In this document: in pieces, positions 1-63,072 of the stretch
How the letters are laid out: each line of letters begins with the position of its first letter
How positions within the stretch are numbered: position 1 is the stretch's first letter
Assembly: GCF_036588685.1 (NCBI RefSeq)
Contig: NC_086374.1
Location: forward strand, 103,044,001 to 103,108,000
Length of the DNA stretch: 64,000 nucleotides
Origin: Mytilus trossulus
Taxonomy: Eukaryota
Reading direction: 5' to 3'
The notes under the pieces: generated by a model
Told to the model about the DNA's origin: nothing
Database searches by the model: none
The model's input: the letters and a program-made list of their open reading frames with translations, nothing else
Position numbers and translations under genes: made by a program

Positions 1-622
1 CTTACAACATTTGTATAAACTTCAAGATTATAAAAAAACGGTTTTTTTCTAAAGTGAACATTGATTGGTTAAATATTTCTCAGTGTGTTTGAATTTGTTT
101 GTTAGCCTTTTGGTCATGAATGTTTGTCTCTAATATTTAATTAACTGTGCATTTGTATTCAGATATCGCAGATCAAATTTATTCGTTCATTGTGTAATCA
201 TACGTTTTTTGATTGAGTTAAGTCTGCCAATTGATATTTTATCGTATGTTTTTATATGTTGTGATGTTATGCTATTGTTTCAGAAAAAGGGAGAAGGTTT
301 GGGCCCATTAAAACGTTTAATCCCGCTGCAAATGTTTGCACCTGTCCTAAGTCAGGAATCTGATGTACAGTAGTTGTCGTTTGTTTATGTAATATATACG
401 TGTTTCTCGTTTCTCGTTTTGTTTATATAGATTAGACCGTTGGTTTTCCCGTTTAAATGGTTTTACACTAGTTATTTTGGGGCTCTTTATAGCTTGTTGT
501 TCGGTGTGAGCCAAGGCTCCGTGTTGAAGGCCGTACTTTAACCTATAATGGTTTAATTTTTGAATTGTTGTTTGGATGGAGAGTTGTCTCATTGGCACTC
601 ACACCACATCTTCCTATATCTA
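1..622 (+). mobile_element. Repeat family A (twister-bearing, fixed 3' end ...cacaccacatcttcctatatcta); copies at 11171-11527 - and 21513-21837 +
   Basis: Near-identical copies with variable 5' ends and a shared 3' end. Confidence 0.8.
271..374 (+). ncRNA. Predicted type-P5 twister ribozyme (repeat family A); cleavage U318/A319
   Basis: GGGA-GA-AGG...U-AA-UCCC-GC-[UGCA/UGCA]-CCUG-UCCUAAGU-CAGG-A, closed by GCUAUUG..UCAGA/UCUGA..CAGUAGU. Confidence 0.8.
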
Positions 623-1974
623 TGTTCTCCCTCACTACGTTCGTCCGAATATAAAGTAATTAATATTCTATGGCCTAACAAAGAACAAACGACATAAAGT
701 ATGTGTGCTACTCGCTATAACCTTTAATTCTATATAATACAACAATGTATGTACCACATACAAACATAATAACAATAATATCATAATTCCAATTACAAAT
801 TCACATTAAATCAACCGTGAATACACGTGTCTACTTTAGGCTATAGCGAGAGTCGATGGTCAGAAAGGTGACCGCACGGGTTTTAAGTGCGGACAAATGG
901 TCACATGTCATGAATATTCACGAACTACTTACGTCCGACGAACTAAATTTTATGACTACAATACAAATAAATGAGAGAAAATATAGGGCAGAGAAACAAA
1001 CCAAAAATAGCCAACAAAAGTTACTAGGTTTATGCGCGCCACGTCAACACAAGTCTAATAAGCGACGCTCAGATGAAAAAAGTTTGAAAACCAAAATAAG
1101 TACAAAGTTAAATATAACCGAGGACCAAAAGTTCTAAAAAGTTGTGACCAATACGACCAGGGTTATCCGCCTGAGACGAGAGTATCCTTATTATTTAGAA
1201 TAATCCATACTTTTGCAAACAGTAAATTTTATAAAATTACTATATAGAAGATGTACATGTTTAAATTGAGGTGGTGTCTAGCTACAGAAAAAACTGGATA
1301 CATTACAAAAATACACAGCCGTGTTAGCCAAAGCCAGTGCAATGCACAAAGTATACAGTGACGTCATATTTGAATTTTAAAACGAGTTCCCAAAATTAAG
1401 GAAGACACTTGGATGAAATTCAAGATTAGATTTGTATGAAATATCAAACATTTATTAATAACAGTAGAAATTACAATACGAATTAATATCAAATTGTAGT
1501 AGTAATTAGATAATTAATTTTATTATTTAGCTATGTCGGTGTTTCTTCTGAATCAAACTGTAAACTAAATATATCGTAAGCATATGGGTAAGCAACTCGA
1601 AAGACACATTGTCAAAGACGAAAATATATATTTGATTTTAGCTATAAGATATATCATGTTATATTTCCTACCAAAGGATGTTGTTTTTCTCTTGGTACCC
1701 CGGCTTCCTTTACCAATGAAAATAATAACCTCTACGAAATAACACAACAGTGATGAAAGGTTTCAATAATATTAATCACTAATTTTTTTGGAAAAAAAAA
1801 CTTGAAATGCTGCCGCTGGCGGGGTAAAAACACGCAATCTCAATGTTAGCAGTAATTTGATTACTGTAGAAGTCATAATTAGAAAGTTCCTAGTAATTTG
1901 GAAGACCACTGTCTAAATCATAATATGATCAACTATAGGTCTTTGCTTAATAATTTCAATTTTATCTTTTTTAG

Positions 1975-3167
1975 TTACTACAATAGATTTCACAGAGGTG
2001 CAAGGTCTATATAAAACAAATCCTGTAGCTGAAATAATAGGACAAGATTCTGATGTTTTTAGAGTCCAAACTGTAAACACGGAGATGGTTACTATTGCAT
2101 TGGACAAAGATTTGACGAAACCGAAGTATGAAATCTTTGTGGTAGTGTCTGTAACAGCTGATGGTATAGTGATACGAGATTTCAAACATATAACAATAAC
2201 AGTAAACAAGGACAGTGTTATAAGGAAAGAAATATTCATAATGGATGGAACATTGAAAGACAGTGTGGTTGGCCTCGTTTGCCAGTCGTGCTTATTATTT
2301 GAAAACATGACACAAATAGATCCTCATGATATCGTAACGGTACAAAACGATGGAGTTATCACAACATCAAAAACTATCGATTTAAATAGTATCCAAGGGC
2401 CCACAACAATAGCATATTCAACATATGTCGAAATTCAAAAACAATTTACTTCTGTTACCGTTGTTAATATTACAATTCATATCATACGTGCTGAGTTTGA
2501 ATGTGAGTTATTCGAAGATGGTGTTGCAAATACAGTTGTCGGTAACCTGAAATTAAATAATCCATTTTCAATTGATTCCGATTCTGAATTTCAAATAAGT
2601 GGAATGTCATTGACTCTTGGGTCCGTCGTTTTAGACTATATCGAGCAAATTAAAGTAACGAAAACACTCAGGATATCAATAAGTGACTATACATTTGACA
2701 CTACAATAATGATAAATGTACAAGATGTTAATGATAAAAGTCCAACGTTTATAGCCACACCGTATAATTTTTTTACATTGGAGTCGGCATACCCTGGGTT
2801 GATAGTCGGTGTTGTTTCAGCAATTGACCCCGATACGAACTCCGATTTGAAATTTAGGATCAATCCAGACGATAAATTGAGGATCAATGATTACGGTATC
2901 ATAACAATACGAAGTGGTTTTGGCACAAACGCAAATGGTTATAACGCCACTGTTACAGTGACTGACGGGTTGCATCCTGTAACTGAATTTGTAACTGTTG
3001 AAATTGAACAAACGACAACCAGTAATCTCCAAAATAAATTTGCTGGAAGTATTTCTGAAAATCAAAAAACTCCAAGAGTAATAGAAACCGTTTTTATCCC
3101 AAATTACAAAAACTATAAGTTCACAGATAGATCAGCATTTACAGATTTCAGTATTGACCTTCAAACG
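1975..3167 (+). CDS. Gene 1 exon a: divergent EC1-EC4 and start of EC5
   Basis: 404-aa ORF with QDVNDKSPTF and AIDPD; ttttag acceptor and ACG|gtaag donor. Confidence 0.9.
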
Positions 3168-6100
3168 GTAAGATTATACATTTATTACAAGATATTTAAT
3201 ATCATACATTAACGATTAAAAGTAAGTCAGATAAGCTATTTTTCACCTATCTTTCGTTTTATTCAACATTTACCCATCCGAAGTGGCCATGCCGTCAATG
3301 TCAATAATTTGTCCATTTTGTCACATCATAGTGTACTTGTGAAGCTGTGTTTTTGTTTAAGAACAACAATCGTTAAAGGAAGAATTTATTGTAACCTACT
3401 GAATTACAGAAGAAGTTGTAGATTAGATTTATGATATCTTCATTTAATCATCAAATTTCATTCAGGCAATTTCACAAAATTAAGTGCATCTTTAGATGGT
3501 AGTAAATGATAAGAAAACGCAAATTCCAAACCCATAAAAATGCCCGAACTATTACAAAAAAAAACACCCCAAAAAAACCCATATCAGAGAAAACAAGATA
3601 ACATTTTTCAATCCCAATTTTGTAGCATATTTCGACCTTCAGATTTTTTTCATTAAAATGCTATATTCACAAACGAATCATAATAAATGCATTAAAGAAT
3701 CGATTTTAGTTTATTCAAAATGATTAATAACAAAACATGATGTTTATCAAACGTTTATAATGTTATAATAAATAGTGGTGGCGATACAGTCATCATACAG
3801 TCATCATGGTATTATTCTTTGTAAATATATCTAAATCTAGTAGGTAATAACATTGGCCATTATTGTAACAGTTCATAGCACCCAGTAATTATTTTTTAAG
3901 GGTCAAGTTAAAAATGTAAGAGACTTTGACAGGGAAATGGAAACTGAGAGGGAGTTTAAATATACCATTGTAGCAAACGAGGATGGCGCACTGAAATGTT
4001 CATTAGTGGTAAGTAAATTTAACATAGATATCAGGATTAAAGTTTGTTACTTATAAGACAGATGTCCGTTTAACTTGTAAACGAAAATGACAGAAAAACG
4101 AAATACAACTCATGTGGGTTTATTATGTTTCGTAGGAAATCAATTTCGTAAATGTCGTTTTTACAGGTAAACCACGGCATTAAAAGAGGGACGAAAGATA
4201 CCAAAGGGACAGTCAAACTCATAAATCTAAAACAAACTGAAAACGCCATTGCTAAAAATGAAAAAGACAAACAGAAAAACAATAGTACACATGACACAAC
4301 ATAGAAAGCTAAATAATAAACAACACGAACCCCACCAAAAACTAGGGGGGATCTCAGGTGCTCCGAAAGGGTAAGCAGATCCTGCTCCACATGTGGCACC
4401 CGTCGTGATGCTTTTGTGATTACAAATCCGGTAAATAGTCTAATTCGGTAGGTCACATTCATGAAACCAACTCGTGATGGCGTCCGTAAAATTTACGAAG
4501 GGATGATTTCAACTTCACTATTTGGAACTCCTGGTTTAATAGCTTTCTTATCAAGAAAATCATAATAGGATATGCAAGCACTGGAATATCGTATCAATTG
4601 GGAAATATATACCCCTTATGCAGGTGCTGCTGGAATGTTGCTACTTAGAAATGGGAAGTTCACAATTGGAAAGCTGAAATCATCTCTTTTGTCGTAAAGT
4701 ATTGTTTTCAACCGACCCTCATTGTCAATTTCTAGATGTAAGTCAAGATATGAAGCCGACTTAACTGTATCTGTAGTATCCTTTATCTCCAATTCGATGG
4801 GATAGATGCGTTCCACATAGTCACCAAATTTTGAATTGTTTAGTGAAATAACGTCATCTATATAGCGGAAAGTAGATTTAAAGGATATTGCTAACTTCTT
4901 ATCTTTCTTCCTAAAAAGTTCCTGCATGAAGTCAGCCTCATAATAATAAAGAAACAAGTAAGCAAGTAGAGGGGCACATTAAATGTTTAACGGACAACAA
5001 TTTCCCCATAGCCTTGCAGGCAGAATTTGCAAAATCACAAAATCCAATACATAAGAACACGCAAGACTAAGTGTTCCTAAATCGACAAATACTGGTACCC
5101 ACGAAAATAAATGATTCCATAGCAACAATTTTAAATGAATATACAGAACAAACTTCTGAAACATATACTTGTACCTTGTCGTGCATGTTTAAATACCTAA
5201 CTGCATTTCACAATTTTGATCTCAATACATGACACTTCTATATGCTTTTTCATAATTTCATAAGGGACCATACAAGTCAAATGCATACTTTGATGGATAA
5301 TATATAAAAGCTAAGGTAGAAATTATTTCGTGCATTTTTTATTGCATTTTTAAAAAAATAAACAAATATGCGAGTTTGATAATTTTGTATACGGAATTGA
5401 CCTTCCTTACATTTGACAACATCTATACCCTTTCGCTTTAATATCAGAGAGTCACACTTTGTTTTATAAGATTTTGCGCATTATCTTTTGTAAAACGATG
5501 ACTAATTTATTTTGCTATTTTTATTTAATATCTGTCAAAAGAAAAAGAATTAAAGAAAGATACGTTCAAGGTAGTTTTATAGTTACGGATGCATTTGATA
5601 ATTCTTGTTTTACTTTTTCATTAGATTTACACATATTTATTGCATGTAATTGACAGGTAATAGGAGAGATAACTATTACAGTGACCGATCAAAATGACGA
5701 ACCACCTGTATTTGCCAGCCATTCTTATACAGCCACGGTTTCAGAGAACGCTCTTAATGAAAAATTGATGGTAAGGCAAGATCAAATAGATTTATAAACC
5801 CTCGCGTTTTTTTATGAACATATACTACGGTTTATGTTTTGTTGACAGGGTTTATCCCCCATTGTATGACATAAGGTAACGCCTGTATAAAGCCAGGCAT
5901 ATGACACTTGTATTTTCAAACACTAATCCAATCTTAACTTATAGAATTGCTGTATATCAAAAATCGATATAAACTGACTCGACAAAACAAGTCCAGGCAA
6001 AACCTAGAAAATCTGACATGTTAAAAAGAAATCAAAAACATAAGTATATAATGTAATGTTGGACGTAATACGTCCTCTGGTTGACTGATAGTGGTTTGTC

Positions 6101-9100
6101 ATATACATTATTTGTGTCATGTGAAAATGACGTTATCAACGTTTTTCGATGATTTATTCCGTCTTAAAATGAAATTTAGAATTAAATTAGAAGGCATGAC
6201 TGTTATATTTCTTTTCTTTTTACTCGAAATAACATCACAATTGTGGTGCTTACTTAAAAATAGACCGCTACACGGGTTATTCAGTGTGGCACACATTTTT
6301 GATGTGTTTCCTCCATAGTCAGAAAAAATATTGCAGTAATTTCTTAAATAGCAATTGAAAGTATATAATGAAATATTTGAATTCCATTTATGTATTAGGT
6401 TGTTCCTGAAATATCGACGACTGATAAAGATTTGAATCCTACAGTAACATATAGCATTTCAACAAATACTAACAAATTCGCCATAGATTCATTTACTGGT
6501 AAGATACATATTGTAACATATTGTATATAGATAAAGGAAGATGTGGTATGAGTGCCAAGAAGACAACTTTTCGTCCAAGTCACAATTTATAAAAGTAAAC
6601 CTTTATAGGTCAAAATTGTCTTTATTTTGAAATATTTAATTAAGAAAACATTCAGAAACATACCCTGAACATTACCTTATTACAAAAAAGTAGAAAATGG
6701 GAATATCTAACACATTCCCGCTTAGTAATAGATCTACAATCGAACAAAATCACACACATATTCGATGTCTGTCGGTATTGTCGCTCCCAACAGTGTTGAC
6801 GTGCGTACATTATGATTTGGTCACTAACACACCACCCTTAGTAATTTGGCTCTATGAGCTTCTTCTAATGACTGTGCTTTAATTTTATGACCCTGCATCG
6901 AAGTTAAAATTTGACATTTCACTGTTTAATGCTTTCCCAGCCGTAAAACATTTATTATAATTCCTTTTCTAAATAGCACGTTTTGTCCATCACATTTTCC
7001 TTCAAACCACACGCAAATTGTTGTCAAAGGAAAAACCTTTATTTGAAGTGGTGTTCAAATCTATGGGTTCCACCAACGTAAGCGGCGGCGACGATGTAAA
7101 ATGGCGTTATTCAATTATAATGATACGGAAAAGATCTGCCATAGATTTGGAGAAAACAAAAATCTGTCATAGATTTGATTTATTTGACGTATGTAACGTC
7201 ACTTTTCCCATACATTAGAAATCTGCAATCGATTTGGAACCCGCCGTAGATTTGAGTCCTTAATTTTTTTTTTTGAGTACATGCTTTTTTAACTGTTTAT
7301 TTCAGACTTATTGTGATTTCGATATACGTTTTAGAATATCAAATATGAGAATTTGAGTCATATCAAATCAAAAAGCTAGTGCCCCATAAATATGTGTAGC
7401 ATATTTGAATAATGTTATGTACATTCTATCAATCATTGTTTTGTTTTAAAATAGGAACTATAGCAACACAACTGGGACTCGACAGAGAAACGGAAGATCA
7501 CCTAAATGTTGAAGTTGTTGCATCAGATGGTACAAATTCCGCAACAGCTACAGTTACTGTCAAAGTACTGGATAAAAATGACAATACACCCCAATTCAAT
7601 TCTGGTCAAAGCAGGTAAATTCTGTTTGAATGATGAATTTGTATTATAAACTTACCGACTATAATATGATTTCCTTGATATATAAATCTGGTTAAATTAA
7701 TGAGTGGTGATTGAGATAAAAGCTTAATAATAATTTGTTTGGGTTTTGTTTGTAGTTCATAAAAAAGAAAATGTGGTATGATTGCCAATGAGACAACTTT
7801 CCACAAATCACTAAAATGACACAGACATTAACAACTATAGGTAACCGTACGGCCTTCAAACCCATACCGCATAGTCAGCTATAAAAGGCCCCGATAAGAC
7901 AATGTAAAACAATTCAAACTAGGAAAAAACTAACTGCCTTATTTATGTAAAAAAATGAATGAAAAACAAATATGTAACACATAAACAAACGACAACCACT
8001 GAATTACAGGCTCCTGATTTAGGTTATTCGTGTATTCTATGCAAAAAATTTCGTTTTTTTTTTATTGTGAAAGTATTACAGTGTAATAATATCTTTTAGC
8101 ATTTTTTTTATCACATCCATGACTCAAATATATACACTACGTGTTAAGACGATATTAGTTAATTTATGTTAAATTACAGAAATATTTAAACACAAATATA
8201 CATGTAATTTAATCAAGATAAAACAAAATTGAGAATGGAAATGGGAAATGTGTCAAAGAGACAACAACCCGACAGGAGAGCAGAGAACTGCAGAAGGCCA
8301 CCAACATGTCTTCAATACAGCGAGAAATTCCCGAACCCGGAGGCGTCCTTCAGCTGGCCTTTAAACAAATATAAATACTAGTTCAATAATAATGAACGCC
8401 AAACTAAACTCACAACCGTATACTAGAAACTAAAATTAAAAATAATACAAGACTAACAAAGGCCAGAGTCTCCTGACTTTGGACAGGCGCATAAATGCGG
8501 CGGGGTTAAACATGTTTATGAGATATCAACCCTCCCCTATACCTCTAGCCAATGCAGAAAGTAAACGCATAACAATACGCACATTAAATTTCAATTCAAG
8601 AGAATTCAGAGTCTGCTGTCAGAAGATGTAACCAAAGAAAATAAACAAAATGACAATGATATAAAAAACATCAGACTACTAGCAGTTAACTGACATGCAG
8701 CTCCAGAATTCAATTAAACAGATTGAAAGATTTTGTCTTTATCATATTAATATCAGACACAATCCGTCCGTTAGGGGTTTAGTATCATAACATCATAACA
8801 TATATGAAAAGAACATAAACCGTGTCATGCCAACAACTGGTTTTTGAATAAATGTCTTCAGTTTCGATGCAAAGACCCTATAAGTGAGTAAATATTAAAG
8901 CCAAAATATGCCATCTTTAATGACCTGACAACAGTATTGTAACTATATCCCTTCTTAATATGTCTTTGTTAAGGTTTTGATAGCTTCTGAGGTGAATATT
9001 GACATGTTTTGCTTTATAAAGAATATTTCGATAAAATATATGTTTAAAAGGTTAAAGATGATGCATTTTCACGGAAACATTTACATTCTTAATATTATGA

Positions 9101-12100
9101 TACATACTTGTTTGTATTATGTTTACAAGCTGGACATAAAATACATGAGACAGACAAAACCAATCTGAATACAAATCAACTATCCTTGATGATTTTTGTT
9201 TTATGAAATTGAAAAAAAAAAAACAGTTATGGCCAATGACTAAGTTTTCCTTTTAAGCTTAAAACCTCAAATTGTGTTCTTATTCGCTTAACAATCAAAT
9301 AATTCAACAACATTAAGCACGTCTACACAACATTGGCATTTAGCAGTGTTAAATTTCTAAACTAAAGTGAAGCTTTTAATAAAATGCTTCTGTATCAGAA
9401 AAAATATCAAAACAACACTTTGTGCCGGTTAAAGCGACATCTTTTAAAAATAGATATAACACGCCTTCGAACTTTGCGAAACACACGTGACAGGTAATCT
9501 TTGTTTCAACAAATCACAAACATCGATTTTGAATACACGAGTTCGATAACCGTGTAGGATATATTAGAGGCAATAAATTTGAAAATTTATTAGGTTATTG
9601 TTTCATTGAAGTGTCGTCTCGTTGAAAATTCTACTCATACATCTGCTTAATGTTTGATAAATTTTATTAATAATTGAAACATCTTATATTTCTCTCAGTA
9701 TGACAGTCTCTGAAGGTTCATCTATTGGAGCAAGTATTGGAAAAATGAGTGCTACTGACATTGACGAAGGGAAAAATGCAGAAATTACTTTTGACCTCGT
9801 CAGTAATAATGGTGGTCCTTTTAGAATTAACCAAACAACTGGAGAAATAACTGTCACTGGAAAATTAGACCGTGAAACTTCCGAGACATATGGAGTGAGT
9901 GTATATGCACGAGATAATGGTATATCAATAAGATCAAGTTCCATGTCAGTAACGATAACTGTACTTGATGTAAACGACAACCCACCAGTGTTTACTATAG
10001 ACGACCTTAAAGTTGAATTTGAAGAAAATAAGGATTGTTCCAACCAAATAGCAACTGTTATTGCAACTGATGCAGACAAAGCTGGTACAAGTAACAGCCA
10101 GATAACTTATTCATTGTTAAGGTTAGAATTATTCTATCTGATTTATTTGTCAGTGCATCATATCAAGCGATAGCAACCATGTTTTGTATATAATGTTGTA
10201 AAAGTCATTATAGTGAGCTGAGTTCTTCACTGGATTGTCAATATAATTTTTACTTTAATACCAAAATTCGCGGCTCAATGTTCGAGCCAAACCGTTGCTG
10301 TTTCTTCTCTTTATTACGGAAAAATACATTATCACTTTAAATGGAGGTGACCAGATATCCATGCATATTGCAATCACCGCGTTTTTACTAAGGTCACTTG
10401 CATACGGAAAATATGTCGGCGAATTGCTTCCTGGAAGGAAGCTTCCGGGAAGCAATTAAAAAGTGATAAACGTCTTCTTAATTTAGACTTATTAAAAACA
10501 ATTCTTCGAAAAAAGGTATATGTGCATAAGTTTAAGGTGGTATGGGTGTCTTCTTCTATCTTGGATTGTGAAAAACAGAGACCCAAAGGTCCAGATTTTC
10601 CATCGGGTTAGCAACATTTGATGCAGGAATGCAGATATTTAATGTGAATTTGTATTTATAAGAACCAATTTATAAGAATATAACTTATAAATATTAATAT
10701 TTTTGCAAATGTTAATTAATTTTGGTTGATTTTTTTTGTTTTTTTTTAAGCCCCTGCTTTAAAAGGGGGGGGATATTGTTTTACCTCTGTCTGTCAGTCC
10801 GTCCGTCCGTCGTACCGTCCGTCAGTCCGTCTGTTCGTCCGTCCGTCCGTCAGTCCGTCCCATGAAACTTTCGTAACATTTTTCTCAGGAACTACACATC
10901 CACCCTTTCTGTAATTTGGTATCAACATTTATATATGTCAGCCATACCGTGTGATGCGTTTTCAGATTCATCACTTGACAACTTCCTGTTTACCGAACAC
11001 TTGTATAATTTTACACATGATAACCAAGTTGAAAATTTTCGTCACATTTTTCTCAGGAACTACAATACAAGGATTTCTGAAATTTGGTTTCAGGATTTAT
11101 ATAAGTCAGCTATACCGTGTGATGCGTTTTCAGATTCATCACTCGACAACTTCCTGTTTACCGAACACTTAGATATAGGAGATGTGGTGTGAGTGCCAAT
11201 GAGACAACTCTCCATCCAAATAACAATTTAAAAATTAAACCATTATAGGTTAAAGTACGGCCTTCAACACGGAGCCTTGGCTCACACCGAACAACAAGCT
11301 ATAAAGGGCCCCAAAATTACTAGTGTAAAACCATTCAAACGGGACAACCAACGGTCTAATCTATATAAACAAAACGAGAAACGAGAAACACGTATATATT
11401 ACATAAACAAACGACAACTACTGTACATCAGATTCCTGACTTAGGACAGGTGCAAACATTTGCAGCGGGATTAAACGTTTTAATGGGCCCAAACCTTCTC
11501 CCTTTTTCTGAAACAATAGCATAACATTGCATATTTTTACACTATTAATATTATCCACTTGCGGCGGGGGTATCATCAGTGAGCAGTAGCTCGCAGTTTC
11601 ACTTGTTTAAATAAGCATTTTAAGGGGAGGTAACTCTAAAACAGTGCATTTTCTGAAGGATTCTACATGGTATTTTCCTATTTTGTATTTTAACCGGAAA
11701 AAACGTACGGTAACCCTATCTTTTCTTTTGATCTTCTCAAAGCAGTGCCTGAAAGCTATCTTTTCCTGAAGTATTTAATAATTCTCCCATACCACCTTGA
11801 TAATGAAAACTATCCATTTCATTTTGAGGTTTAAGATGACTTTAAGTTCATAATACTAATTATTACATTTTGATTCTTTTTATTTCAATCATTTTAAACA
11901 GTAACGTTAAATCAGTGATATTATAGTATATTCGCCTTATATCACATTATAAGATGGTAAATATTTGTTGTGCATTATTTGGCATAAAGAGATTTTTCAT
12001 AGTTTGGTTGATATTAAACGCAAAGGACAAGGTACGATAAGGCCCGTTTTTTGCCCACTATTTTCTCATTTTCTAGATATTAGTTTGGAAAGCCACTTGT

Positions 12101-15100: not shown

Positions 15101-18100
15101 ACGTGGCTGGGTTAATTGTGTTTGTAAGCGCTTATTTCTAAATAAACTGACAGTACAATATAATAACGATCTGTAAAATTTAGTTGACAATAATTGACTG
15201 AAACACAGAAATAAATAACACGAGAATAAAAATGAAGATTAGTAACGATCTAAAATACTCACAGTTATTTAAAGTTACTTCAAGCCAATAACAACTAATA
15301 GATAAATTATTTTCTTTCCGAATAATCTTCAATAAAGGCCTTACTAACATATTTAGTTTAACGATATCATAAACAGCACGAGCAATTTATTTAAGAATTG
15401 AATGCTTCTTTTTGTAAATTTATTGGGGTGTGAAAGCGTTGACCGAAGTACATTTTGTATGAAGCGCGTAATTATTACATTATGCAATGTTAAAGATATA
15501 GATAAACAACGTCGAAAGGATATACGATTATAAGAATTCATAAATGTTTAGCAAAACTATCTATTTAAGTTTTACTTTATCAACAAAAAATCATTGCAAG
15601 AACCGATACGTTTGACCAGTAAATTTTGCATCGTCCTATTTTTGTCTTCTTACTTTAAACTTTAAAAACACCGAGAACATATGTCATGTATGTATGAGCG
15701 AAAAAATAAAAAACAAATTGATATGAATATTTTATATTTCGGTCGTGGGTAAGGAGGCGGATGCTTTAAAAAGCTGTACGAAGTTTAAAATGTCTGAACT
15801 TAAAAAAAGCCGGCCTCACAACAGGTTCAAATGTAGATAAATGATGAAATCATAATCTTTCAGTCAGTTTAATTGAAGTCTGGAGCTGGCATGTCAGTTA
15901 ACTGCTAGTAGTCTGTTGTTATTTATGTATTATTGTCATTTTGTTTATTTTCTTTGGTTACATCTTTTGACATCAGACTCGGACTTCTCTTGAACTGAAT
16001 TTTAATGTGCGTATTGTTATGCGTTTATTTTTTTACATTGGTTAGAGGTATAGGGGGAGGGTTGAGATCTCACAAACATGTTAAACCCCGCCGCATTTTT
16101 GCGCCTGTCCCAAGTCAGGATCCTCTGGCCTTTGTTAGTCTTGTATTATTTTTATATTAGTTTCTTGTGTAAAATTTGGAAATTAGTATGGCGTTCATTA
16201 TCACTGAACTAGTATATATTTGTTTAGGGGCCAGCTGAAGGACGCCTCCGGGTGCGGGAATTTCTCGCTACATTGAAGACCTGTTGGTGACCTTCTGCTG
16301 TTGTTTTTTATTTGGTCGGGTTGTTGTCTATTTGACACATTCCCCATTTCCATTCTCAATTTTAATTTCTAAAAAAAAGAAAACTTTCCCACCAAAAATA
16401 TTAAATGATATAAATTTTTATTTTGCGGACGTCATCACGACTTGATAGATCGTTATGGAATATATCCGTTTCACGGATGATATCGGATATGTTCCTTATG
16501 TCGCAACTACAAACTCCTTTTCTTTTCACGAATGTAACCTACCAAATTAGGCTATGTACCGGGTTTGTAATAACACAAGCAGCACGATGGGTGAAACATA
16601 AGGAGCAGGATCGATCTGCTGACCCTTCCGGAGTACATGAGATCACTCCCAGTATTGGTGGTGGTCGGTTTGTTAAGTCTTAAGTTTTATGTTGTGTACA
16701 ATTATTTGTCGATTTGTCTTCCATCCAAATCAAGTTATGTCAAACTTATCTAAGAAGGTGCAACCTATATCTGGTCGTTCTTCGGGTTCCATAAAGAACA
16801 GTCAAATATAATGATTAGATGTATACTACTGTTGCCCTAATTTATAAACTATATGGAACACATGTCAGGACTGATTTCATTTGGTTCCAGAATAACCAAT
16901 TTTAAAGATACCTTAAATAGTAATTTGACCCCCCATCCCTTCATCCAAATTGATATAAACGGCCGAAATTTAATTATGTGTGGTATGACAGAATTTGCAA
17001 TTAAGACAAACAATTCAATAAACTATAAATAAACCTACGGCTTACAACAAAGATCAAAACCTTTGTTCTATTACATCTTTTTTTAAAGAGACAACAATAA
17101 TTAAAAGTTGATGACATACTAGGAACCCATGTCAAATAAACAAAAAGCACAGACACCGGTTTTTTTTTTTTAAACCACCAACATAGTAAATTTCCGGGCT
17201 TTTTTAAAAGAAATAAACATTAATGCAGATACTTACCAATGAAAATTAAATATTATGAACATGAAACTAATTTTTCAGTATTTATAAAAAGAAACTTTTC
17301 ACAAACATTATAAATTATGATTGTAGGTGAGGGTCTATATACAAGACGAAAATGATAACAAGCCGACATTTGTTAGCCCAGCTTATTTCTTTAGAGTGAA
17401 CGAAAACAAAGCTATATCCACTGTAGTAGATCCACAAGGCAGAGAGATAGTAGCAAGAGACAATGACATTGGTGATAATGCTGTAATTGAATTTCAATTA
17501 TCTGGAGATGGTAAGTGCACGGATTTTCCAATGATACAGGTTTGTCAATACTTTTCAAAAATTTATAAGTGTTTGTGAATTCCTCTAAATAAATGTGTTT
17601 TAATTTCGAAATCATTATACATTGTTGAGCATATAATATATATATATATAAATATGGAGATGTGATATATAATTGTCAGTGAGACAACATCTTAATAACA
17701 AGGGACCAAATGGTATAGAAATTAACAATAGGTCACCTTAGTGCCTTCTATATGTGTTTATATTTTGTATTCATTAAACAAATTTGCCATCCCATTCCAT
17801 ACAGCATACAACACTTATAAAGCATGATACATGCACTATGGTTTCAATTCAACTGCAGCATCTGTTCAAATGTACTTTGACTATGTTCCATTTAAAAATT
17901 CCCAGTTTATACCTGGAATAGTCTTATTTGAGAAAGAGGGGCGAAAGATATCAGAGGGTCATTAATTTAAAATAAATTACCGAAAAGTGAAAAGACAAAC
18001 AGACAAACAATAGTACACAAAACACAACATAGAGGGGACGCATAGCGTACTCTGTCTTTATACGTGACCTGACTACATTTAATAAATCGTTTAGTACATA

Positions 18101-21100: not shown

Positions 21101-24100
21101 TTAATTTGTAATTTTTTAATGGATCTGAAGGCCCTGTGGTATAGCTTTGAATTGTAATCCTCAAGGAAGGATTATTTTTTTTACCTGAACGAATCTAGGA
21201 ATGAAATAAGAGATAACACTGTAATCCCCAAAAAGTGTCAACTTAAAAGAACAACGATCAATACTAAAACCATCTTTTATTATGATGGGTTAATGCACAG
21301 AATCAAATATCAATTGCATATTGCAAAAAAGTAAGTCAGAAATGTATTTCCCTCGCTTTCGCTTTCAACCTGACTAGCTAAATAAGATTTTTAATGTTAT
21401 TACTTTATGAAAATATATCAAACTACGCAGATAATTAGTTTGAGTACCCCAAACAAAATATTAGTTCGTTATCGACTGCTCATATTTTAAAACATAACCA
21501 ATCAAGGCAGTTTTGGATCCATTAAAACGTTTAATCCCGCTGCAAATGTTTGCACCTGTCCTAAATCAGGAATCTGATGTACAGTAGTTGTCGTTTGTTT
21601 ATGTAATATATACGTGTTTCTCGTTTCTCGTTTTGTTTATATAGATTTGACCGTTGGTTTTCCCGTTTGAATGGTTTTACACTAGTAATTTTGGGGCCCT
21701 TTATAGCTTGTTGTTCGGTGTGAGTCAAGGCTCCGTGTTGAAGGCCGTACTTTAACCTATAATGGTTTACTTTTTAAATTGATATTTGGATAGAGAGTTG
21801 TCTCATTGGCACTCACACCACATCTTCCTATATCTACTAAAAGACAGAATATGATTTGTTTGCGAACAAAATTCATTTTCTTCTAACAAAAGTCTGTCTC
21901 AAATGATCTTGAACATTAACTTAATACTTCTTTGTCGTATGTGTTACCATTGCTTCCTCACCGTTCACCCATTGTCATAGCGTTGTATACTCATTTATAG
22001 TCCTGGGTGTCAAACTTTAACACAAAACTGAACAAAAAAATAACACGACGGGTGCCATATACGGTGCAGGAAATGCTAACCCTTCCCGATCACCTAATTT
22101 TAATCCCGGTTTTTAGTGAAGCCTGAGTTCGTGTTGTTTTTTATTCATTATTTATTACTGTTGATGTAAATATCCTATGGTTTTTTTAAGTATTTGTTTA
22201 CTACTTGGTTTTGATTGTTATTGTCTTTAAATTGATAAGAAATATGTTTACAGTTGAAGGGACTGGTGAGATAATGTTGAGGTTGAAGGAGAATGCAAAC
22301 ATTGATTATGAAAGTGGACTGAGAAAAAAAGATTGTATAATAAAAGCTTCTGACAAGGGCACTACTACAAGTTTGAGTTCAACAGTAACACTGAGTATGA
22401 TTTTAATAGATGTTAATGATAATAGACCTGTAATAGCTAACCCACACATAAATAAAAGTGTGTCACGTGATGCTGACGTTGGAAGAAACACAACAATTGT
22501 GGATAGAATTCCAGCCTCTGATGCAGATTCGGGTGAAAACGGCAAGTTAGGTTATGCAATACGTAAGTAAATATTGGCATTGTTTTATTTGTCGAATTGC
22601 AGATATTATGGACTTTCCGAATTGATTTTCCTCTAGGTTCAGTATTTTTGTGATTTTACTTTAAATTATAATCGTAAAATAAATTTTATACTGTTATCAT
22701 TCAAAGTTAAGTAATAAAACATGATAAAAACACAAAAAGAAACATCACTTGATATTTATTCAAACAATACCTTTATATACTAGTATTTGTACAATATATC
22801 CTCTGATAAAAAGATTTTACTACATAGACCAATGATCCTAATTCTACTGAACACATGATTAAATAGTTATCAAAGGTACCAGAATTATAATTTAATACGC
22901 CAGACGCGCGTTTCGTCTACATAAGACTCATCAGTGACGCTCAGATCAAAACAGTTAAAAAGGTACGCATAAATGATTACTAACGTCGTTTTTATATACA
23001 CTGTATAAATGAAGGGCAGCACTATATATGTGTGCGTCTTAATCCTCTTTGAAATAGTATGAACTAGTAACCGCAATTAATACTGAAAAATCGAATATTC
23101 GACTATATCATCCAATTGTTCGAATAATTGAAAAAACTGTCATATTCTTGACTTTATACAGACATCGTACGATTAAACTGGAAGATTCAATCTGTTTTAA
23201 TTTGTAGCTAAACCTGCAACTTGTATGACAGTTATCCATAGTTCCAGTATATTGACAAAATTGAAATCGCAAGCTAAACAGACATATTGTGTAATAATTA
23301 TAATGCAGCAGTCAAGTATGTGTAAACATACATCAACGATTTACATCAGAAATGACTTAAATCGGACAGACAGTTGATAGTACATACAGTAAAGTAAAAC
23401 ATAACGACACATATATTTCCCGACTAAATACATATGAAGTACACTACCAATGCAAAGGTGTACAACATGAAAACCACACCGTACAAAACACATACCGCTT
23501 TGACTTTAAAATTATTCTATCTTACTTTTTAGAGGCGTCGGAACATTATTTAAAATTTGCCATCGATGAAAATACAGGGAGAATCACTTTAAACTCACCC
23601 TTATTGAGCGTCCAGAAAGATAAAATTACGATTGAGGTTATCGTTTCCGACAAAGGTGCTATTAAACTGTCAGCGACTGCAACGGTAAATATTCTTTTCT
23701 TTATATATTTGACCGAATTTATCGTTGTTTTGAACAGAGATGGCGTTTGCTTTGGTTTGTTTTTTTTTTTGTTTTTTTTTTTGGGGGGGGGTATTTTTGA
23801 TGTGTGAGTTTTAAAAGTCAGTTAGTTGTTTTTTGCCTCTCTTTTGATCTGACCATTATAATTCAAATATGTAGTTTTTATTAAATTGCTGTTCAGCTTG
23901 AAATTGTCGTATACTTTATGTCTTTCGGGGTATATTATTATAGTTTCATAGTTTATTTACATGGTTTGTACCCAATTATCTCATTATCACTGAACTAGTA
24001 TATATTTGTATAGGGCCAGCTGAAGGACGCCTTCGGGTGCGGGAATTTCTCGCTATATTGAAGACCTGTTGGTGACCTTCTGCTGTTGGTTTTTTATTTG

Positions 24101-27100
24101 GTCGGGTTGTTGTCTCTTTGACACATTTCCCATTTCCATTCTCAATTTTGTCAAATTCAAATTCAAATGAAATCAAGAAATCTGTATTTAACAATATGAC
24201 TACAACATTAATGTATTATTAACATTACTCTTTTTATTAGGTAACAATCCACATACTTGATGAGAACCCACGTCCTTATTTTTCACAATCAGAAACAGTT
24301 CACATCAAAGAGCATGTTCCACAACCAAATGGCATCCTATCTACAGTAACAGCATTTGATAGAAGTCATGGCACAATTGATAAATGTAATTGTACATATT
24401 CACTCGACACAACACGAAGTATGTTTATTTTCAGCTTATTGCCTTTGCATTCCTATTTCCTCCTCTTTTCGGTCATTAAACAAAGTAATAAGTTCAAGAT
24501 GATACAGGATTTTATAATTGATGAATGATTTTATACAGAAAAAAAGTTATTGAAAAAAAACCCATTTAAATTCAACCAAATCATTTAGTTCTGCCTTCTT
24601 GTATTTGTAACTGTAACTCTATATTGTCATATTATGTATATGCACTTGGCTCATGAGGGTACCTCTTACCGAAATGAAATATGTTCTATTCTATTCCATA
24701 TATCTGATTAAATGTTTGTTATTTTTTGTGAGTGGTATGGACGTTCCGTAATTTACTGAATTAAATGTAATTCTCAAATCATCCTACAATTTCTGTTATA
24801 ACCGAATCTGCCACAATACCCCGTTAATATCTTATTTAACCAATGGCAATCCCCTTAAGGTCAAGTTACAGTAGATGGGCTATGTCACAGATTTCAGTAA
24901 AATTTGGCATACAACTCTGGCTCGATGAACTTCAACTGAAAATCGAAAAAATATTGCATTTATCTGAATTATCATTTGAAATATTATTGATTGAATTCTT
25001 ACAAAATGGGTGAACATGTGTATAGAAAGCACATTAAATCGGCGAAAACCCTTCTAAAATTTGTCTACTCCATAGATTTTTCTTGATAAACTATATGTTG
25101 TTGATACATAAATTATCGATATAATGATGCAAAATAAAGATAGGGTCACCGACTTCGTTTGTACAGTACACTTCATTTAAAGTTGCGTTCTTTGTGAAAA
25201 AATCCAACAAAACGTCGAAATAATCGTAAAGTTATCGCGTTGCAGGCCGAAAAACGTTGATTTTTGACGTTTTTCACTACCAACAAGGTAACAAATTGAT
25301 TATTAGACAAAAAACAAAGTCGGTGACCCTATGATTATTTTATATCATTAAAACAGAAATTTATGTGTCAACAATATATAGTTTTTTAAGAAAAATCTAT
25401 GGAGTGGAATTAAAGATTTGGCGATTTTAAGACAAATTTTAAAAGGTTTTTAGCCGATTTTATGTGCTTTCTATACAAATATTCATCCATATTAAAAGAA
25501 ATCAATCTGCAATTTTTCAGATAATAAAAGAGATAAATGTATGATTTTTTCGATTTTCAGTTGAAGTTCAACGAGCCAAGGTTGTATGCAAATTTTAAGC
25601 AAAATCTGCGACATAGCCCATTTACTGTTCCTTGACCTTAAGTATGCATGATAATTCTTTACTGTTTTCATAAATCGATAGTATACATTAATTATATATT
25701 ATATGTATTTCAGAGGACATTATTATTATAGAAAGTACCACAGGAACTATCAAATTTAGAGATAGTGATTTCGTTCTTGATCGGGAAGGAGAATCTCACG
25801 GAAAAGTGATCATTGGAGTTATAGCAACCGACAAAGGTTCTAAGAATTCCAAGACAATGCCTTTTACTATAAATATAGTCGATATAAATGACCAAAGTCC
25901 AGCATTTGAGAAGCTTGCATATGCCTTTAGAATACCACAGGTAATTATGAAATACCAGAAATAATGATATGTATTGTTTGCATGGTTTGGGTAATTTCGT
26001 ACAAAAAATTGATAAGTTTTAGTATATAGTACCTCCACATCGGGATGGTAAAGTACAAGTTTGATATCGTTCGTGTATATTCACCGGACTTACCAAGGTA
26101 CCTAAAACTCTGATCCAACTTAGTTACGGCACAGAACGACTAACATTGACAGTTCGTAAGATGTTAGGTCACAATAACCAATGTGTCGATGTTTCTATGT
26201 CTCAACACAATTGGTTCACGTGTTTGCGGTTTTAATTTGTACATACCAGAATAGTTGTCTATTATGTCATTTTACCTGTTTTTTCCTTTTGACGATTATG
26301 ACATTTTGACTAATTGAAGATTTGAACAACATGTGATGCATGAATAGCAAAAACTATCGCCATGTCGGCGCACCCAATCTGATTCTTTTTGTTCTCCGTT
26401 CAATGTCCTCATGTTTATTATTCACCACGATTTCTATCCTTAATCGATTGATTTATTTAATGTACATTGGTAAATAGCTTGAGCCTAAACTAACATCTTT
26501 TCTGTGAATTTGAAAATGTATATGGTTATATGGTGCAAGTTAAAGAATACTAAATGTTGCTCACATTAGACAGAAAAAGAAGAATTCACCACAAATTGAA
26601 ATAGAAAAAGTTACTGAAAAGATATAAGTTCCGATTTAGACTATTTACCGGATTTGTTATCACATAAGCACCACGACGGGTGCCACATGTGGAGCAGGAT
26701 CTGCTTACCCTTCCGATGCACCTGAGATCACCCCTAGTTTTTGGTGGGGGGTTCGTGTTGTTTATTCTTTAGTTCACTATGTTGTGTCATGTGTACTATT
26801 GTTTGTCTGTTTGTCTTTCATTTTAAGCCATGGCGTTGTCAGTTTGTTTTAGATTTATGAGTTTGACTGTCCCTTTGGTATCTTTCGATCCTCTTTCATA
26901 GTATATCTCGAAGGTTAAACCTTATTGGTCAGCTTATTTGCTTTGTGACGGATTTTATCTTACGTTTACACCGTTACAAGTTAAACAAATGAATATACGC
27001 TTAATTACTTATTGAAATATACAATATTAAAAGAGAGACGAAAGATACCTGAGGGACAGTCAAACTCATAAATCGAAAATAAACTGACAACGGCATGGCT

Positions 27101-38426: not shown

Positions 38427-39278
38427 ATAATAATATGGATATTTTAGAATGAATTAGTCTAAATATTTGCGTTAACTCGATGAGATATGTTATAGGAGCC
38501 CAAACATCTGAGTTTTTGGTAAGGGGCGACATCAAAAGATTGATGTAGGATAAAGAAAAAACTTAAATCAAGTAGTTAAGGGGGAGGGGGTAAAATTCTG
38601 CAACACCCAAATCACCAAAGGTCTAGTAGTTTGCCAAAACAACAATAACATCATATGCCTTCGTATATATTTCTTAACATAAGCTGACAATATGTAGCAA
38701 GTCCAATCTGTGGAGCGTTAGTTAAAGGATGACTGTTAATTTTTCTATGAACAAATTCATGGTTAAAAAAAATATCAAACAAACAACTATATGCATGAAA
38801 AACATAAACTATCGAAACTCATTAAAGGTTTGTTACTTCGAAAAACAAAATGTATACCTCCTTTCATACTATTGTTCGATAAGCAGACATGAGATACCCA
38901 TAAGTCATTACACCGAGTACGTGACAACATCACAAGATTTTAGAAAATAATGAAATACAGAACCCTCATTATCCGGACCTCCAGTAATAGACACATGACA
39001 CGGGTTATGTTCTTTTCATATATGTTATGATGGTATGATACTAAACCCCTAACGGAAAGGATTGTGCCTGATATGCATATGACGAAATGATAATCTTTCA
39101 GTCAGTTTAATTGAGGTCTGGAGCTGGCTTGTCAGTTAACTGCTAGTAGTCTATCGTTATTTATGTATACTTGTCATTTTGTTTACTTTCTTTGGTTACA
39201 TCTTCTGCCATCAGACTCGGACTTCTCTTGAATTGTATTTTAAATGTGCGTATTGCTATGCGTTTACTTTTCTACATT

Positions 39279-39369
39279 GGCTAGAGGTAAAGGGGGAGGG
39301 TTGAGATATCATAAACATGTTTAACCCCGCCGCATTTTTGCGCCTGTCCCATGTCAGGAGCCTCTGGCC
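39279..39369 (+). ncRNA. Predicted twister ribozyme (family D), L4 variant UCCCAUGU
   Basis: Same fold as 16040-16130. Confidence 0.7.
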
Positions 39370-40229: not shown

Positions 40230-40660
40230 TTTTTTTGTCTCTTTGATGAGTTAAGCCTTTTTCAACGGATTTTTATAGTTCGTTCTTATGTTGTACTGTT
40301 ATACCACTATCCCAGGTTAGGGGAGGGTTGGGATCCCGCTTACATGTTTAACCCCGCCACATTATTTATGTATGTGCCTGTCCCAAGTCAGCAGACTGTA
40401 ATTCAGTGGTTGTCGTTTGTTTATGTGTTACATATTTTTTTTCGTTCATTTTTTTTACATAAATAAGGACGTTAGTTTTCTCGCTTGAATTGTTTTACAT
40501 TGTCTTATCGGGGCCTTTCATAGCTGACTATATGCGGTATGGGCTTTGCTCATTGTTGAAGGCCGTACGGTGACCTATATTTGTTAATGTTTGTGTCATT
40601 TTGGTCTTTTGTGGATAGTTGTCTCATTGGCAATCATACCACATCTTCTTTTTTTTTTTT
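40230..40660 (+). mobile_element. Repeat family A2 (twister-bearing, 3' end ...ggcaatcataccacatcttc); copies at 7760-8020 -, 19265-19518 -, 30525-30715, 44435-44757, 51587-51950, 59213-59385, 63703-64000
   Basis: Many similar copies with a common 3' end. Confidence 0.8.
40303..40411 (+). ncRNA. Predicted twister ribozyme (family A2), P4 mismatch
   Basis: ACCACU..CAGGU-UA-GGGGAGGG...UAACCCCGC-CACAU/AUGUG-CCUGUCCCAAGUCAGC...AGUGGU; more decayed copies at ~44455-44562 and ~51587-51706. Confidence 0.68.
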
Positions 40661-41122
40661 ATATTATAATCACATATGACAGTACGAGTAGAGATTACTC
40701 CTATAAAGGTATATAATTTCAAGATATTAAATCTTATTAGATTTTATTATGGACAAGTATTTGCACAATTTTTAAGAAAACGTCTAGGCCTTTTAATCGC
40801 TAAATTTCAGACAAAAACTAGAATTTCAACGGTAAGTTATTATTGCGTGTCTACATTACCGTTACATTTCATATTTCTAAAAAAATTAAATCAACACTTT
40901 ATGGTTCTCATGCGTCCAAAGCGCTTGTTTTATAAGCATTCAATAGGAACGATAAAATTTGAATATTTGAAAACAAAGGATGCATAAGGACCGGAAAAGT
41001 GAAAGAGCTATTATATAAGCAAAATGAATCTAAATATTTAATAATAGCCAAAATCCATCTTTATTGAACTATGCCTGCGGGGGTTGAAACCTTTTTTTCC
41101 TAAAAATATCTAAATGTCTAAT

Positions 41123-60200: not shown

Positions 60201-63072
60201 AATGTCCAATTCAAATTTTCAAGTTCTTATACCATATTCATTCTGTCTGAAACCAATGCTGTGTCAAATATGTATTGTCGATTATCGTTCAGACCTGTAA
60301 TACACTTAAATGTTGTTTTCATACTTGCCTTGAATGTTCGGTCTCTGTAGTCGTATTGAGCTGCGCTCATTTTAAAGTAAATTTCGTTTTCTTGCTTATT
60401 CTTTCTCCTTTCAGACGATGAAACCTTTTTAAACAAAACAAAAACAATAAGTAAAGGTGTTATATTTTCTTGGCGTTACCTTCGTACTGCATATGAATGA
60501 TTCATTGATTAACATTAAGGAAAAGATATTTTATTTATTTTTACATAAATCAAATCGATTCCTAATCGGAGGCAGACTGTTTACTACTCTAAAGAAGTCG
60601 TTCTTACTGGGCGGCAACAAGTCATTGAATATATCTTATTTAAAGAGTAATGAAAAGTAAAATCACAAAAATACTGAACTCAGAGGAAAATCAATTTGGA
60701 AAGTCCATAATCACATGGCAAAATCAAAAAACAAAACGCATCAAAAACGAATGGACAAGAACTGTCATATTCCTGACTTGGTACAGGCATTTTCAAATGT
60801 AGAAAATGGTGGATTAAACCTGGTTCTATAGCGCTAACCCTCTCACTTTAATAATAGTCTCATCAAATTCCGTTACATTTACATGATGCGTTAAATAAAC
60901 AGTCACAATCAATAAAATAGTCAAAATATGGGAACATCAGTCATCATCGTATAACAATTTAACAGGACACAACAACATCTACTATCTACGAACACATGGA
61001 TTGATTTGAGTGTCTGATGTCAGAAAAATTATATACGTCACATAAATTTGTCGTTCAATGTGCATACAATAGTTATCCAAAGTACCTGGATTATAAACAA
61101 TTTTAAATTTTACATAGGCAATGAGCGCAGACAGGGTTAAAAAATCAAAAGTATGTAAGAATAAATTACAGAAATCAAACTAGTCCAAAAGTTATACATA
61201 GAATTTATGAGAATCCAAAACTTTTAAAAGGAACAATTTAACAGGACACAAAAACCTATCCACGATATAATATTGTACTATAACAAGTGATCGTCCATTT
61301 GGTTATTCGAATTCATAGTTGTTAGCTTTTTTACCATATTTATATACGTAACTTTTTTCAATACAGTTGAATGTAATTGAAAACAAAATTGTACTTGATT
61401 TAAATTATGATTCTTATAAAAATAGATTTGACTGTTATAAAATTATTCCCAGTTAAACGATGTGAGATCAGAATAATGAAAACTCATAATATGTGTTATC
61501 GTTTGAGTTAAACAGTATTCGTTTACTGTAATTAAATTATGAAATTATTGCGAATTTTATTTTGCTGCAAATATTACGACTGGATGATGCATTTTGATAA
61601 CTGATACATATACCTGGATGCAGCTTTTCCAGAATTCGAAATTAGTAACATCGCATTTTTGTCCGTTCTTGAAAATCGCAATCAAAAATATGCTCAATAA
61701 TTTCTGCGTTTGCAATTTTGTACTATCGTTATTGATTTAAACGTTCTACTCTACACTGGTCGTAGTTTCAATAGCTGTAAGACTCCGATTCAAAATACGA
61801 GTTCGAATAAAAATCATACAGGCAAGCTTTATGACAAAATCATCAACTAATTTGTTTATTTTAATGAAGGGTTGAAGAAAGTTTTTATTTCTTCCATTAA
61901 TCCTATTTAATAGATCTTTTTAAAATTCAAATACTTTCACAACACTCTTTTGCTCGTGTTATCGGAAAACATTGTCAAAATAAATGGTCCTGGAGATGGC
62001 ATGTCAGTTAACTGCTAGTAGTCTGTTGTTATTTATGTATTATTGTCATTTTGTTTATTTTCTTTGGTTACATCTTCTGACATCAGACTCGGACTTCTCT
62101 TGAACTGAATTTTAATGGGCATATTGTTATGCGTTTACTTTTCTACATTGACTAGAGGTATAGGGGAGGGTTGAGATCTTACAAACATGTTTAACCCCGC
62201 CACATTTTTGCGCCTGTCCCAAGTCAGGAGCCTCTGGTCTTTGTTAGTCTTGCATTTTTTTTATTTTAGTTTCTTGTGTACAATTAGGAAACTAGTATGG
62301 CGTTCATTATCACTGAACTAGTATATATTTGTTTAGGGGCCAGCTGAAGGACGCCTCGGGTGCGGGAATTTTTTGCTACATTGAAGACCTGTTGGTGACC
62401 TTCTGCTGTTTTTTTCTACGGTCGGGTTGTTGTCTTATTGACACATTCCCCATTTCCATTCTCAATTTTACTTATCTTACTGATGAATCATTGAAATAAT
62501 ACTATTTTATTTTTTATTTTGAAGAAGTTTTTTCCCCAATGTGTAGTCTTGAGGAACAAAAAAAGTATTATCAATTGAATGATTGTAAATTGTTTCAAAC
62601 TGTTTTGAATTATAAAAAACACTATTGTATAGCCTTGATTTGTGCGTGTTAAGCATACCCTGGTTTGCAATTATTTGATGAAGAAAGCAATAAATTAATT
62701 ATTAATTTCTAGAATGATTCTGAATAGCCATTTAGCGATAACCTTCTTAGTAATTCCAATCATTATCTCTTTCTTATAAACTTGTGATTATTTGTCCGAA
62801 TGTAGAATTGTACAAAAAAAAAACGACGCTTCTTTGATTTTAAACATCTCAGCTATTCAGTTAAGCATTTATTTAGCAATTGAAAGAGTGTTCATGTTAG
62901 CTTTTATTCACACAATTTTACAACTAGAGCCCTTTAGATGTACCATTTTAATTTACAGGTTATTGGCATAGTGACTATTTTAGTAACAGATGTAAACGAT
63001 GAACCTCCTATATTTGTTGGTGCTCCTTACAACGCTACAATTGAAGAAGAGGATAAGGATAAAGAAATATTG
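53974..63072 (+). CDS. Cadherin gene 2 (3'-partial), tandem paralogue of gene 1: mucin-like Thr-rich segment + EB/EGF-like module + EC repeats
   Basis: join(53974-54276,56421-56498,56798-57981,59609-59710,62959-63072), phases consistent. The last three exons match gene 1 exons a-c in boundary and sequence (e.g. KYDIFVVVSVTVDGIVIRDF vs KYEIFVVVSVTADGIVIRDF). Confidence 0.87.
55179..56041 (+). mobile_element. 5'-truncated Penelope-like retroelement (family C), decayed
   Basis: FRYIDD...YGVYISQLIRYSRA, with stops and frameshifts; same 3' UTR as 4182-4460. Confidence 0.85.
56421..56498 (+). CDS. Gene 2 exon (PTKLFSQEYHKVSINISESGPIGQQ)
   Basis: Start of EC1 (F...ISE..PIG); phase 1-1. Confidence 0.82.
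56798..57981 (+). CDS. Gene 2 large exon (paralogue of 1975-3167)
   Basis: 425-aa ORF with LDVNNKAPVF and AFDLD; ACG|gtaag donor. Confidence 0.9.
59609..59710 (+). CDS. Gene 2 exon (GEIRNKRAFDREK...CSLA)
   Basis: Paralogue of 3901-4008. Confidence 0.87.
60656..61260 (-). mobile_element. Repeat family E (twister-bearing); short 3'-end fragments at ~12590-12680 - and 22605-22662 +
   Basis: Shared end ...gttcagtatttttgtgattttactt. Confidence 0.65.
60758..60860 (-). ncRNA. Predicted twister ribozyme (family E)
   Basis: GAGAGGG...UAA-UCC-AC-CAUUUUC/GAAAAUG-CCUG-UACCAAGU-CAGG-A. Confidence 0.65.
62150..62239 (+). ncRNA. Predicted twister ribozyme (family D)
   Basis: Same fold; compensatory change in P5 (GACUAGAGG/CCUCUGGUC). 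Confidence 0.78.
62959..63072 (+). CDS. Gene 2 exon (VIGIVTILVTDVNDEPPIF...)
   Basis: Paralogue of 5657-5770. Confidence 0.87.

Follow-up and report, generated by a model that had tools for sequence, protein, structure and literature searches.

The 3' untranslated region (UTR) of Naiad Penelope-like retrotransposons (PLEs) in Mytilus trossulus carries, as read from sequence, a type-P5 twister ribozyme fold that lacks its P1 helix and bears in the P1 slot two short palindromes, whose letters change from family to family while their self-complementarity is kept. Two RNA copies likely pair at these palindromes. We propose, and consider the chances about even, that this pairing would switch cleavage on in tandem transcripts and leave solo copies silent. 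The window referred to below is the whole 64,000-nucleotide stretch of DNA that was analyzed; its features are listed in Table 1.

Table 1. Twister components, Naiad copies and second-motif sites in the window
Feature	Position	Strand	Comment
Family-A Naiad copy, 3' end (3' UTR/pLTR)	1..623	+	5' side cut by window start
P5, 5' strand	280..284	+	Partner of 359-363; here the type-P5 permutation is open
P2 strand GGGA	289..292	+	Pairs with 321-324
L1 strand: G293 (general-base position), A294, pseudoknot strand AGG	293..297	+	
Palindrome 1, UGGGCCCA	300..307	+	Centre 303-304
Palindrome 2, AAACGUUU	311..318	+	Its last U directly precedes the predicted cut
Predicted cleavage site U318^A319	318..320	+	A319 at general-acid position; by homology to Rfam twister models
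P2 strand UCCC, 2-bp pseudoknot strand GC, P3 hairpin	321..340	+	
P4 stem with conserved loop L4 (UCCUAAGU)	341..356	+	
P5, 3' strand	359..363	+	Pairs with 280-284
Second family-A copy, complete twister	11167..11527	-	97.8% identical
Family-A copy with UGGAUCCA	21509..21836	+	Truncation point immediately upstream of palindrome 1
Family-D Naiad 3' end with twister	15841..16367	+	DKA-bearing parent RT in L031
More family-D copies	8215-8829 (minus), 38994-39622, 61990-62478		
Family-A2 Naiad 3' end with twister	40242..40669	+	
More family-A2 copies	44435-44761, 51628-51958, 63703-64000		
Family-E Naiad 3' end with twister	60648..60870	-	Approximate limits; close to published Naiad_Mgal tail
Second motif	26640-26900, 16524-16720, 55838-56045	+	
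Second motif	4180-4450, 27024-27250, 32690-32890	-	

A circularly permuted twister fold

The segment at 280-363 has the predicted fold of a circularly permuted, type-P5 twister: P2, P3, P4, P5, both pseudoknots and the catalytic G and A are all present and covarying. Seven family representatives of this genome were compared, with pairs counted independently of a MAFFT alignment, which misplaced the variable helices. The L1 elements (N^AA and GA-NNN; here U318-A319-A320 with G293 and A294) are alike in all seven, N being U or C, and the L4 loop U-NNN-AA-GY is present on the P4 stem. The 3-bp pseudoknot between the L1 strand and L4 covaries across families (AGG/CCU, GGG/CCC, GGU/ACC) and is complete (3/3 pairs) in six of the seven representatives, with 2/3 pairs in the remaining one; the 2-bp pseudoknot reads GC/GU or AC/GU in every one. 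P3 and P5 pair in the representatives despite sequence differences, and P5 is predicted in families A, D, A2, E and G with a different sequence in each, which places the termini in P5. P2 has 4 bp in A, D and A2, 3 bp and a bulge in E, and a C.C opposition in G.

Rfam models at gathering threshold had no match anywhere in the window. Short scans returned twister-P1 at E 5.2 and RF02684 (Twister-P5) in two copies, scoring 21.3 bits (E 0.014) and 19.3 bits (E 0.04) and so short of the gathering threshold of 37.6 bits, the P1 part of the model being left without alignment; RF02684 run over the whole genome came back empty, and so did its control. Despite this sub-threshold score and the absent P1, the element is a twister by every other feature of its predicted fold that was tested.

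Two palindromes in the P1 slot

From 293 to 320 the order is GA-AGG, UU, UGGGCCCA, UUA, AAACGUUU, AA. The original prediction had placed two self-complementary words in the P1 slot, between GA-AGG (293-297) and U318^A319, and there they lie, at 300-307 and 311-318. A normal P1 is absent, as had also been claimed: all ten linker variants seen at least twice oppose U.U at the first two P1 positions, and at most two of the five P1 positions can pair in each. The suggestion that the loops would be too short for stable hairpins agrees with predicted hairpin energies of 0 to -0.4 kcal/mol. Palindromy is indeed kept while sequence changes, nine of the ten linkers holding two palindromes with arms of at least 4 pairs, compared with 0.03-0.4% of 20,000 composition-matched shuffles per linker. 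The palindromes are not due to chance. The predicted energy of a duplex between two copies is -10.9 to -17.8 kcal/mol for the first word (nine intact variants) and -5.3 to -8.6 for the second; the self-duplex energy of the whole linker stands out less clearly from shuffles (p 0.02-0.23, and 0.49 for the damaged variant).

Some details of the original prediction had to be amended. The variant UGGAUCCA does start at 21514, but on a 5'-truncated copy that lacks GA-AGG. As family types, the words given for D, A2 and E hold, but none of the four D copies in the window has both words intact, each carrying a change in one of them. AACCAGGUU is a palindrome of odd length with an unpaired centre, and the first palindrome is often longer than had been stated, at 10 nt in D.

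Palindrome 1 is of even length in every family, and all four Watson-Crick centres are represented. Within family A, counts by eye over the first 100 of 3,452 genome matches listed gave centres GC (47), AU (42), UA (9), GU (1) and AC (1); the 98 paired centres belong to three subfamilies that have expanded, and so count as two double changes, not as 98 events. The coupled variants AU and UA dominate the RNA reads of run X24 too. In a hairpin these centres would form the loop and be free to vary; that they change in pairs therefore favors pairing between two strands. The covariation originally proposed thus extends through the centres, where only pairing between two strands explains it well. We also noticed, after the fact, that in three sequence types the 5' half of palindrome 2 varies together with the pseudoknot strand (GGU-UU/AAACC, GUG-UU/AACAC).

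The host element and its copies

The repeat holding the twister is the 3' UTR of Naiad elements, a reading based on the motif content of the upstream frame (N-terminal GIY-YIG, DKA, reverse transcriptase (RT)). All 30 fetched genomic family-A copies share a common 3' end and have ragged 5' ends, and RNA read ends at 622-623 back the 3' limit of the first copy in the window. The four longest copies reach the Naiad ORF, in which a Penelope-type RT ends without an endonuclease. In the family-A parent (L031), a single frame runs in the order GIY-YIG, CxC, DKA, RT and stop, followed by the UTR; motif reading places the endonuclease motif GIQYVG first and RT last, while a Pfam search of the frame gave no GIY-YIG match and a weak RVT_1 match. 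CxC reads ST*DC, with UGA at the asterisk, and DKA reads ADKAANN. GIY-YIG, CxC, DKA and a C-terminal RT form the Naiad signature described by Craig et al. 2021 (PMC8557442). The predicted cut site of the parent lies ~710 nt past the stop and ~300 nt before the 3' end. Family D has an RT bearing DKA upstream, and a same-strand upstream RT was found at 3 of 25 A2 loci and 3 of 30 E/G loci, with no such match within 1.5 kb at the others.

In the same parent, in-frame UGA codons occupy five positions where cysteine is likely (3069-4470), and a SECIS-like hairpin (6057-6114, E 0.0033) lies between stop and twister; a UGA also follows DKA in family D. The family-A parent is probably, from these features, a selenoprotein-encoding Naiad.

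An exact 38-mer of the repeat occurs 1,310 times in the genome, and two looser patterns have 20,507 matches (control 993) and 7,211 matches (control 1), for a total of roughly 27,000 twister-repeat matches. Most copies are solo, with one same-strand pair within 1 kb among 100 matches listed. A near-tandem of 5'-truncated copies was seen in one of four fetched regions, and L031 has no upstream pLTR. Retrozyme and SINE readings of the repeat were dropped because long copies continue into the RT ORF. Non-LTR retrozymes are non-coding 150-400-nt tandem monomers with a type-I hammerhead, whereas the copies here are scattered 3' pieces of an element that codes for protein, and no tandem array of the retrozyme kind was found at twister loci.

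A loose L4-loop scan pointed to 17 places in the window, at which 13 twister-like copies of five or six repeat types were recognized by eye. A further, decayed twister type lies at 39895-39990 (minus strand), with P3 CACC/GGUG and a damaged first palindrome. Other contents of the window include a 57-bp tandem array at 47775-48978 (21 copies, 91% matches); a long reading frame at ~1980-3000 (plus strand), with what we take to be cadherin-like words and a 65% similar paralogous stretch at 56944-57312; and, at 10789-11170, a GTCC microsatellite beside a duplicated 168-bp unit, presumably akin to Helitron-type non-autonomous repeats, with a family-A copy inserted adjacent.

Published Naiads and a second 3' UTR motif

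Of the 54 consensus sequences of Naiads that accompany PMC8557442 as a supplement, we inspected the tails of 51 by eye, covering 11 bivalve sequences in full and the last 420-450 characters of the other 40, so that motifs farther upstream in the latter could be missed; a word search of the supplement for the canonical L4 loop also misses motifs, since the loop varies. A P5 twister with two palindromes is found in seven of the 51 tails: Mley (ctenophore), Movir-1 (cubozoan) and Mgal, Bpla, Mphi, Scon and Mmer (bivalves). Palindrome 1 is different in each, with an even length of 8-12 nt and in some a wobble pair; palindrome 2 spans 8-13 nt, in many cases with a single unpaired position in the middle, and extends to the cut or past it. 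These tails bring new pseudoknot pairs, CGA/UCG and CAC/GUG (also by eye), and the tail of family E is a near match to Naiad_Mgal. Separately, the Amil, Plae, Ovul, Movir-2 and Chem-3 tails contain hammerhead core words in an unusual order (GAAA before CUGANGA) with long-range complementarity, which suggests permuted hammerheads in the same slot. Hammerhead-core words in several Naiad tails had already been remarked by the authors (PMC8557442).

Eleven other published Naiads (two cnidarian, five bivalve and four hemichordate, by eye) have an unrelated motif in the same slot. It consists of a CGGGUG/CACCUG stem around a 10-nt palindrome, a conserved segment with a covarying 4-5-bp pseudoknot, and a 6-8-nt palindrome, together with an outer stem and a hairpin. 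This genome holds 5,520 matches, and an RT lies upstream in 17 of 25 loci (L090-L114). Rfam has no match to the motif. It is neither a twister nor a hammerhead, and an HDV fold, mapped by eye, was rejected: there is no catalytic joiner and P3 is not conserved. We regard the motif as a candidate unclassified ribozyme or dimerization element.

A model of dimer-gated cleavage and its alternatives

In the model, the free 20-24-nt loop of a single copy would pair back onto the catalytic GA-NNN strand and leave the ribozyme largely off. Two copies could meet as the upstream pLTR and the 3' UTR of one partial-tandem transcript, or as two RNAs on a reverse-transcriptase dimer. Palindrome 1 would then nucleate a duplex, palindrome 2 would follow, the pseudoknots would form and U^A would be cut. 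Cutting of both copies in a tandem transcript would release a unit-length RNA, which could be circularized; having one ribozyme only, this RNA would stay uncut and serve as a template across the site, from which 5'-truncated and partial-tandem insertions would arise. Solo copies within host transcripts would stay silent.

Traces of cleavage were sought in the genome and in RNA. Among 100 listed copies, five looked as if they began at the cut; counting across the genome, against matched controls, gave no support for this, with 24 genomic 5' ends at the predicted site, 20 at the upstream control and 111 downstream (~66, ~55 and ~238 after correction for pattern pass-rate), and hence no pile-up at the cut. 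The downstream position, window 357 in family A, lies just 3' of P4; 5' truncations there are ~3.6 times commoner than at the cut (one control), possibly because the reverse transcriptase stalls when it meets the folded ribozyme. RNA reads of run X24 (~6% read, 4,713 reads) cover both strands and show no piled-up ends. Ends that carry a 5'-OH or a cyclic phosphate are poorly captured by standard RNA-seq and by TPRT products.

With a ribozyme lying between the ORF and a fixed 3' end, and copies without a 5'-end pile-up, the inserted templates must have been uncut or rejoined, which calls for conditional activity; a constitutive cutter at this place is hard to square with insertions through the site. 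Gating is also supported by folding predictions, made with a program that ignores pseudoknots: with the linker blocked, in the way a duplex would block it, the core is predicted to come free at a cost of 0.4-2.4 kcal/mol instead of 3.7-5.7 in five of six families. The joint variation of palindrome 2 and the pseudoknot strand, noted post hoc, is a further point in its favor. Hammerheads with a palindromic stem III, which belong to the same retroelement class, cleave as dimers (PMC6765202), and the likeness is closer than the original prediction had it, the host itself being Penelope-like.

Against gating, neither genome nor reads showed a cleavage footprint, family G gains nothing from linker blocking and has the C.C opposition in P2, tandem copies are rare among those listed, and the covarying P5 stem, as predicted, already tethers the monomer. 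Both helices formed between two closed loops would, moreover, interlink the strands. Real linkers are no costlier than shuffled ones (27-89% of 150 shuffles as costly, in six families), giving no sign of a selected off-state. Deletion of P1 is reported to leave the twister near wild-type activity (PMC5408937, PMC11662667); PMC8501958 calls cleavage without P1 inefficient. The hammerhead of the Poseidon element is protein-assisted, dispensable for in vitro insertion and leaves no RNA-seq ends (PMC11167929), data that would by analogy fit either conditional model.

A second reading, which we hold to be rather unlikely and yet a serious contender, is that the palindromes form a retrovirus-like dimerization signal loading two templates on the reverse transcriptase, with cleavage dimer-independent, either constitutive in vitro or protein-gated. 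The dispensability of P1 in twisters would accord with it, as would the two palindromes of the unrelated motif in the same slot of 11 Naiads, by which dimerization looks older and more general than the twister. The Poseidon protein, too, is predicted to be dimeric and assists its hammerhead (PMC11167929), and PLE insertions are often tandem or inverted (PMC8557442). However, palindrome 2 lies against or across the scissile bond in all families, which is odd for a signal unrelated to catalysis, and constitutive cutting would take away the 3' end, which all insertions keep.

It is improbable that the twister fold is kept for its structure (protein binding, RNA stability or reverse-transcription pausing) and cleaves rarely or never. 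The lack of ends at the site, in run X24 and in the genome, and the excess of 5' ends just 3' of P4 (111 matches, one control) would be expected of such an element, but conservation from ctenophore to bivalves extends to the catalytic G and A, to L4 and to both pseudoknots, and the ends sought are of the kind that the available products detect poorly.

Action of the words within one molecule, as tight hairpins stabilized by protein or tertiary contacts or as hairpins of cDNA or genomic DNA, is more doubtful again: a small loop would fit the unpaired centre that palindrome 2 often shows, but the centres change in complementary pairs where loop positions could vary freely, hairpin energies are near 0, and there is no common sequence for a DNA-binding protein. 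Template-switch correction of quasi-palindromes is a known mutational process, and the family-A variants represent only two events, yet a functionless artefact of this kind is very improbable given the same position, two words and wholly different sequences in three phyla and a second motif, and the existence of wobble-preserving variants.

A broader and decidedly tentative proposal, which we think will more probably fail than stand, is that Naiads have a swappable 3' UTR ribozyme slot and a constant two-palindrome RNA dimer, some of them bearing the first natural obligate-dimer twister, a copy-counting allosteric switch, and others a new self-cleaving class in the pseudoknotted motif. Naiads dominate many invertebrate genomes and are set apart from other PLEs by the absence of canonical hammerheads; a conserved twister in the hammerhead slot would mean that self-cleavage has been handed to another ribozyme rather than given up. 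That hammerheads, twisters and a third motif have converged on palindromes suggests RNA dimerization as a step of Penelope-like transposition. The question of what Penelope-like ribozymes do becomes testable with 100-nt RNAs, and a natural dimer-gated twister, if true, would offer RNA engineering a ready concentration or copy-number switch.

Comparison with known systems

We found no paper linking Naiads and twisters, although subscription papers, the Roth 2014 supplement or the Rfam seed could hold related sequences. The word 'twister' does not occur in the main text or supplement of PMC8557442, whose available text reports for Naiads just the absence of canonical hammerheads. The link is likewise absent from the available portions of PMC7761336, PMC6765202, PMC10085705, PMC13725137 and bioRxiv 10.64898/2026.07.22.740005; PMC7761336 does refer to truncated twisters, as yet unpublished, at the 5' ends of RTE elements.

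The host matches published Naiads (PMC8557442) in its N-terminal GIY-YIG, CxC, DKA, C-terminal RT, 5' truncation and fixed 3' end. Its ribozyme shares with the type-P5 twister (RF02684) strand order, L1, L4, P2, P4, both pseudoknots and an open P5, and differs from it in having P3 and, instead of a P1 helix, two palindromes; the P1 region of RF02684 is ~20 positions long, and some seed members could be the same thing. The T-variant twisters of Schistosoma Perere-3 (PMC8501958) and the mini-twister are also retrotransposon twisters with P1 degenerate or absent. The Perere-3 twisters differ in being of type P1 and in their place, which is the 5' end of an RTE-type LINE; they cleave in monomeric form, with neither palindromes nor dimers reported in the available text.

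Closest in setting are the minimal type-I PLE hammerheads that cleave as dimers (Lunse et al. 2017, as cited in PMC6765202 and PMC7761336), which share the retroelement class, the pLTR slot and a palindrome replacing a stable stem. They belong to a different ribozyme class and have one palindrome instead of two, and stem III is essential in the hammerhead whereas P1 is not in the twister. What appears new here is a P1-less twister with covarying palindromes in Naiads, for which a dimer mechanism is predicted.
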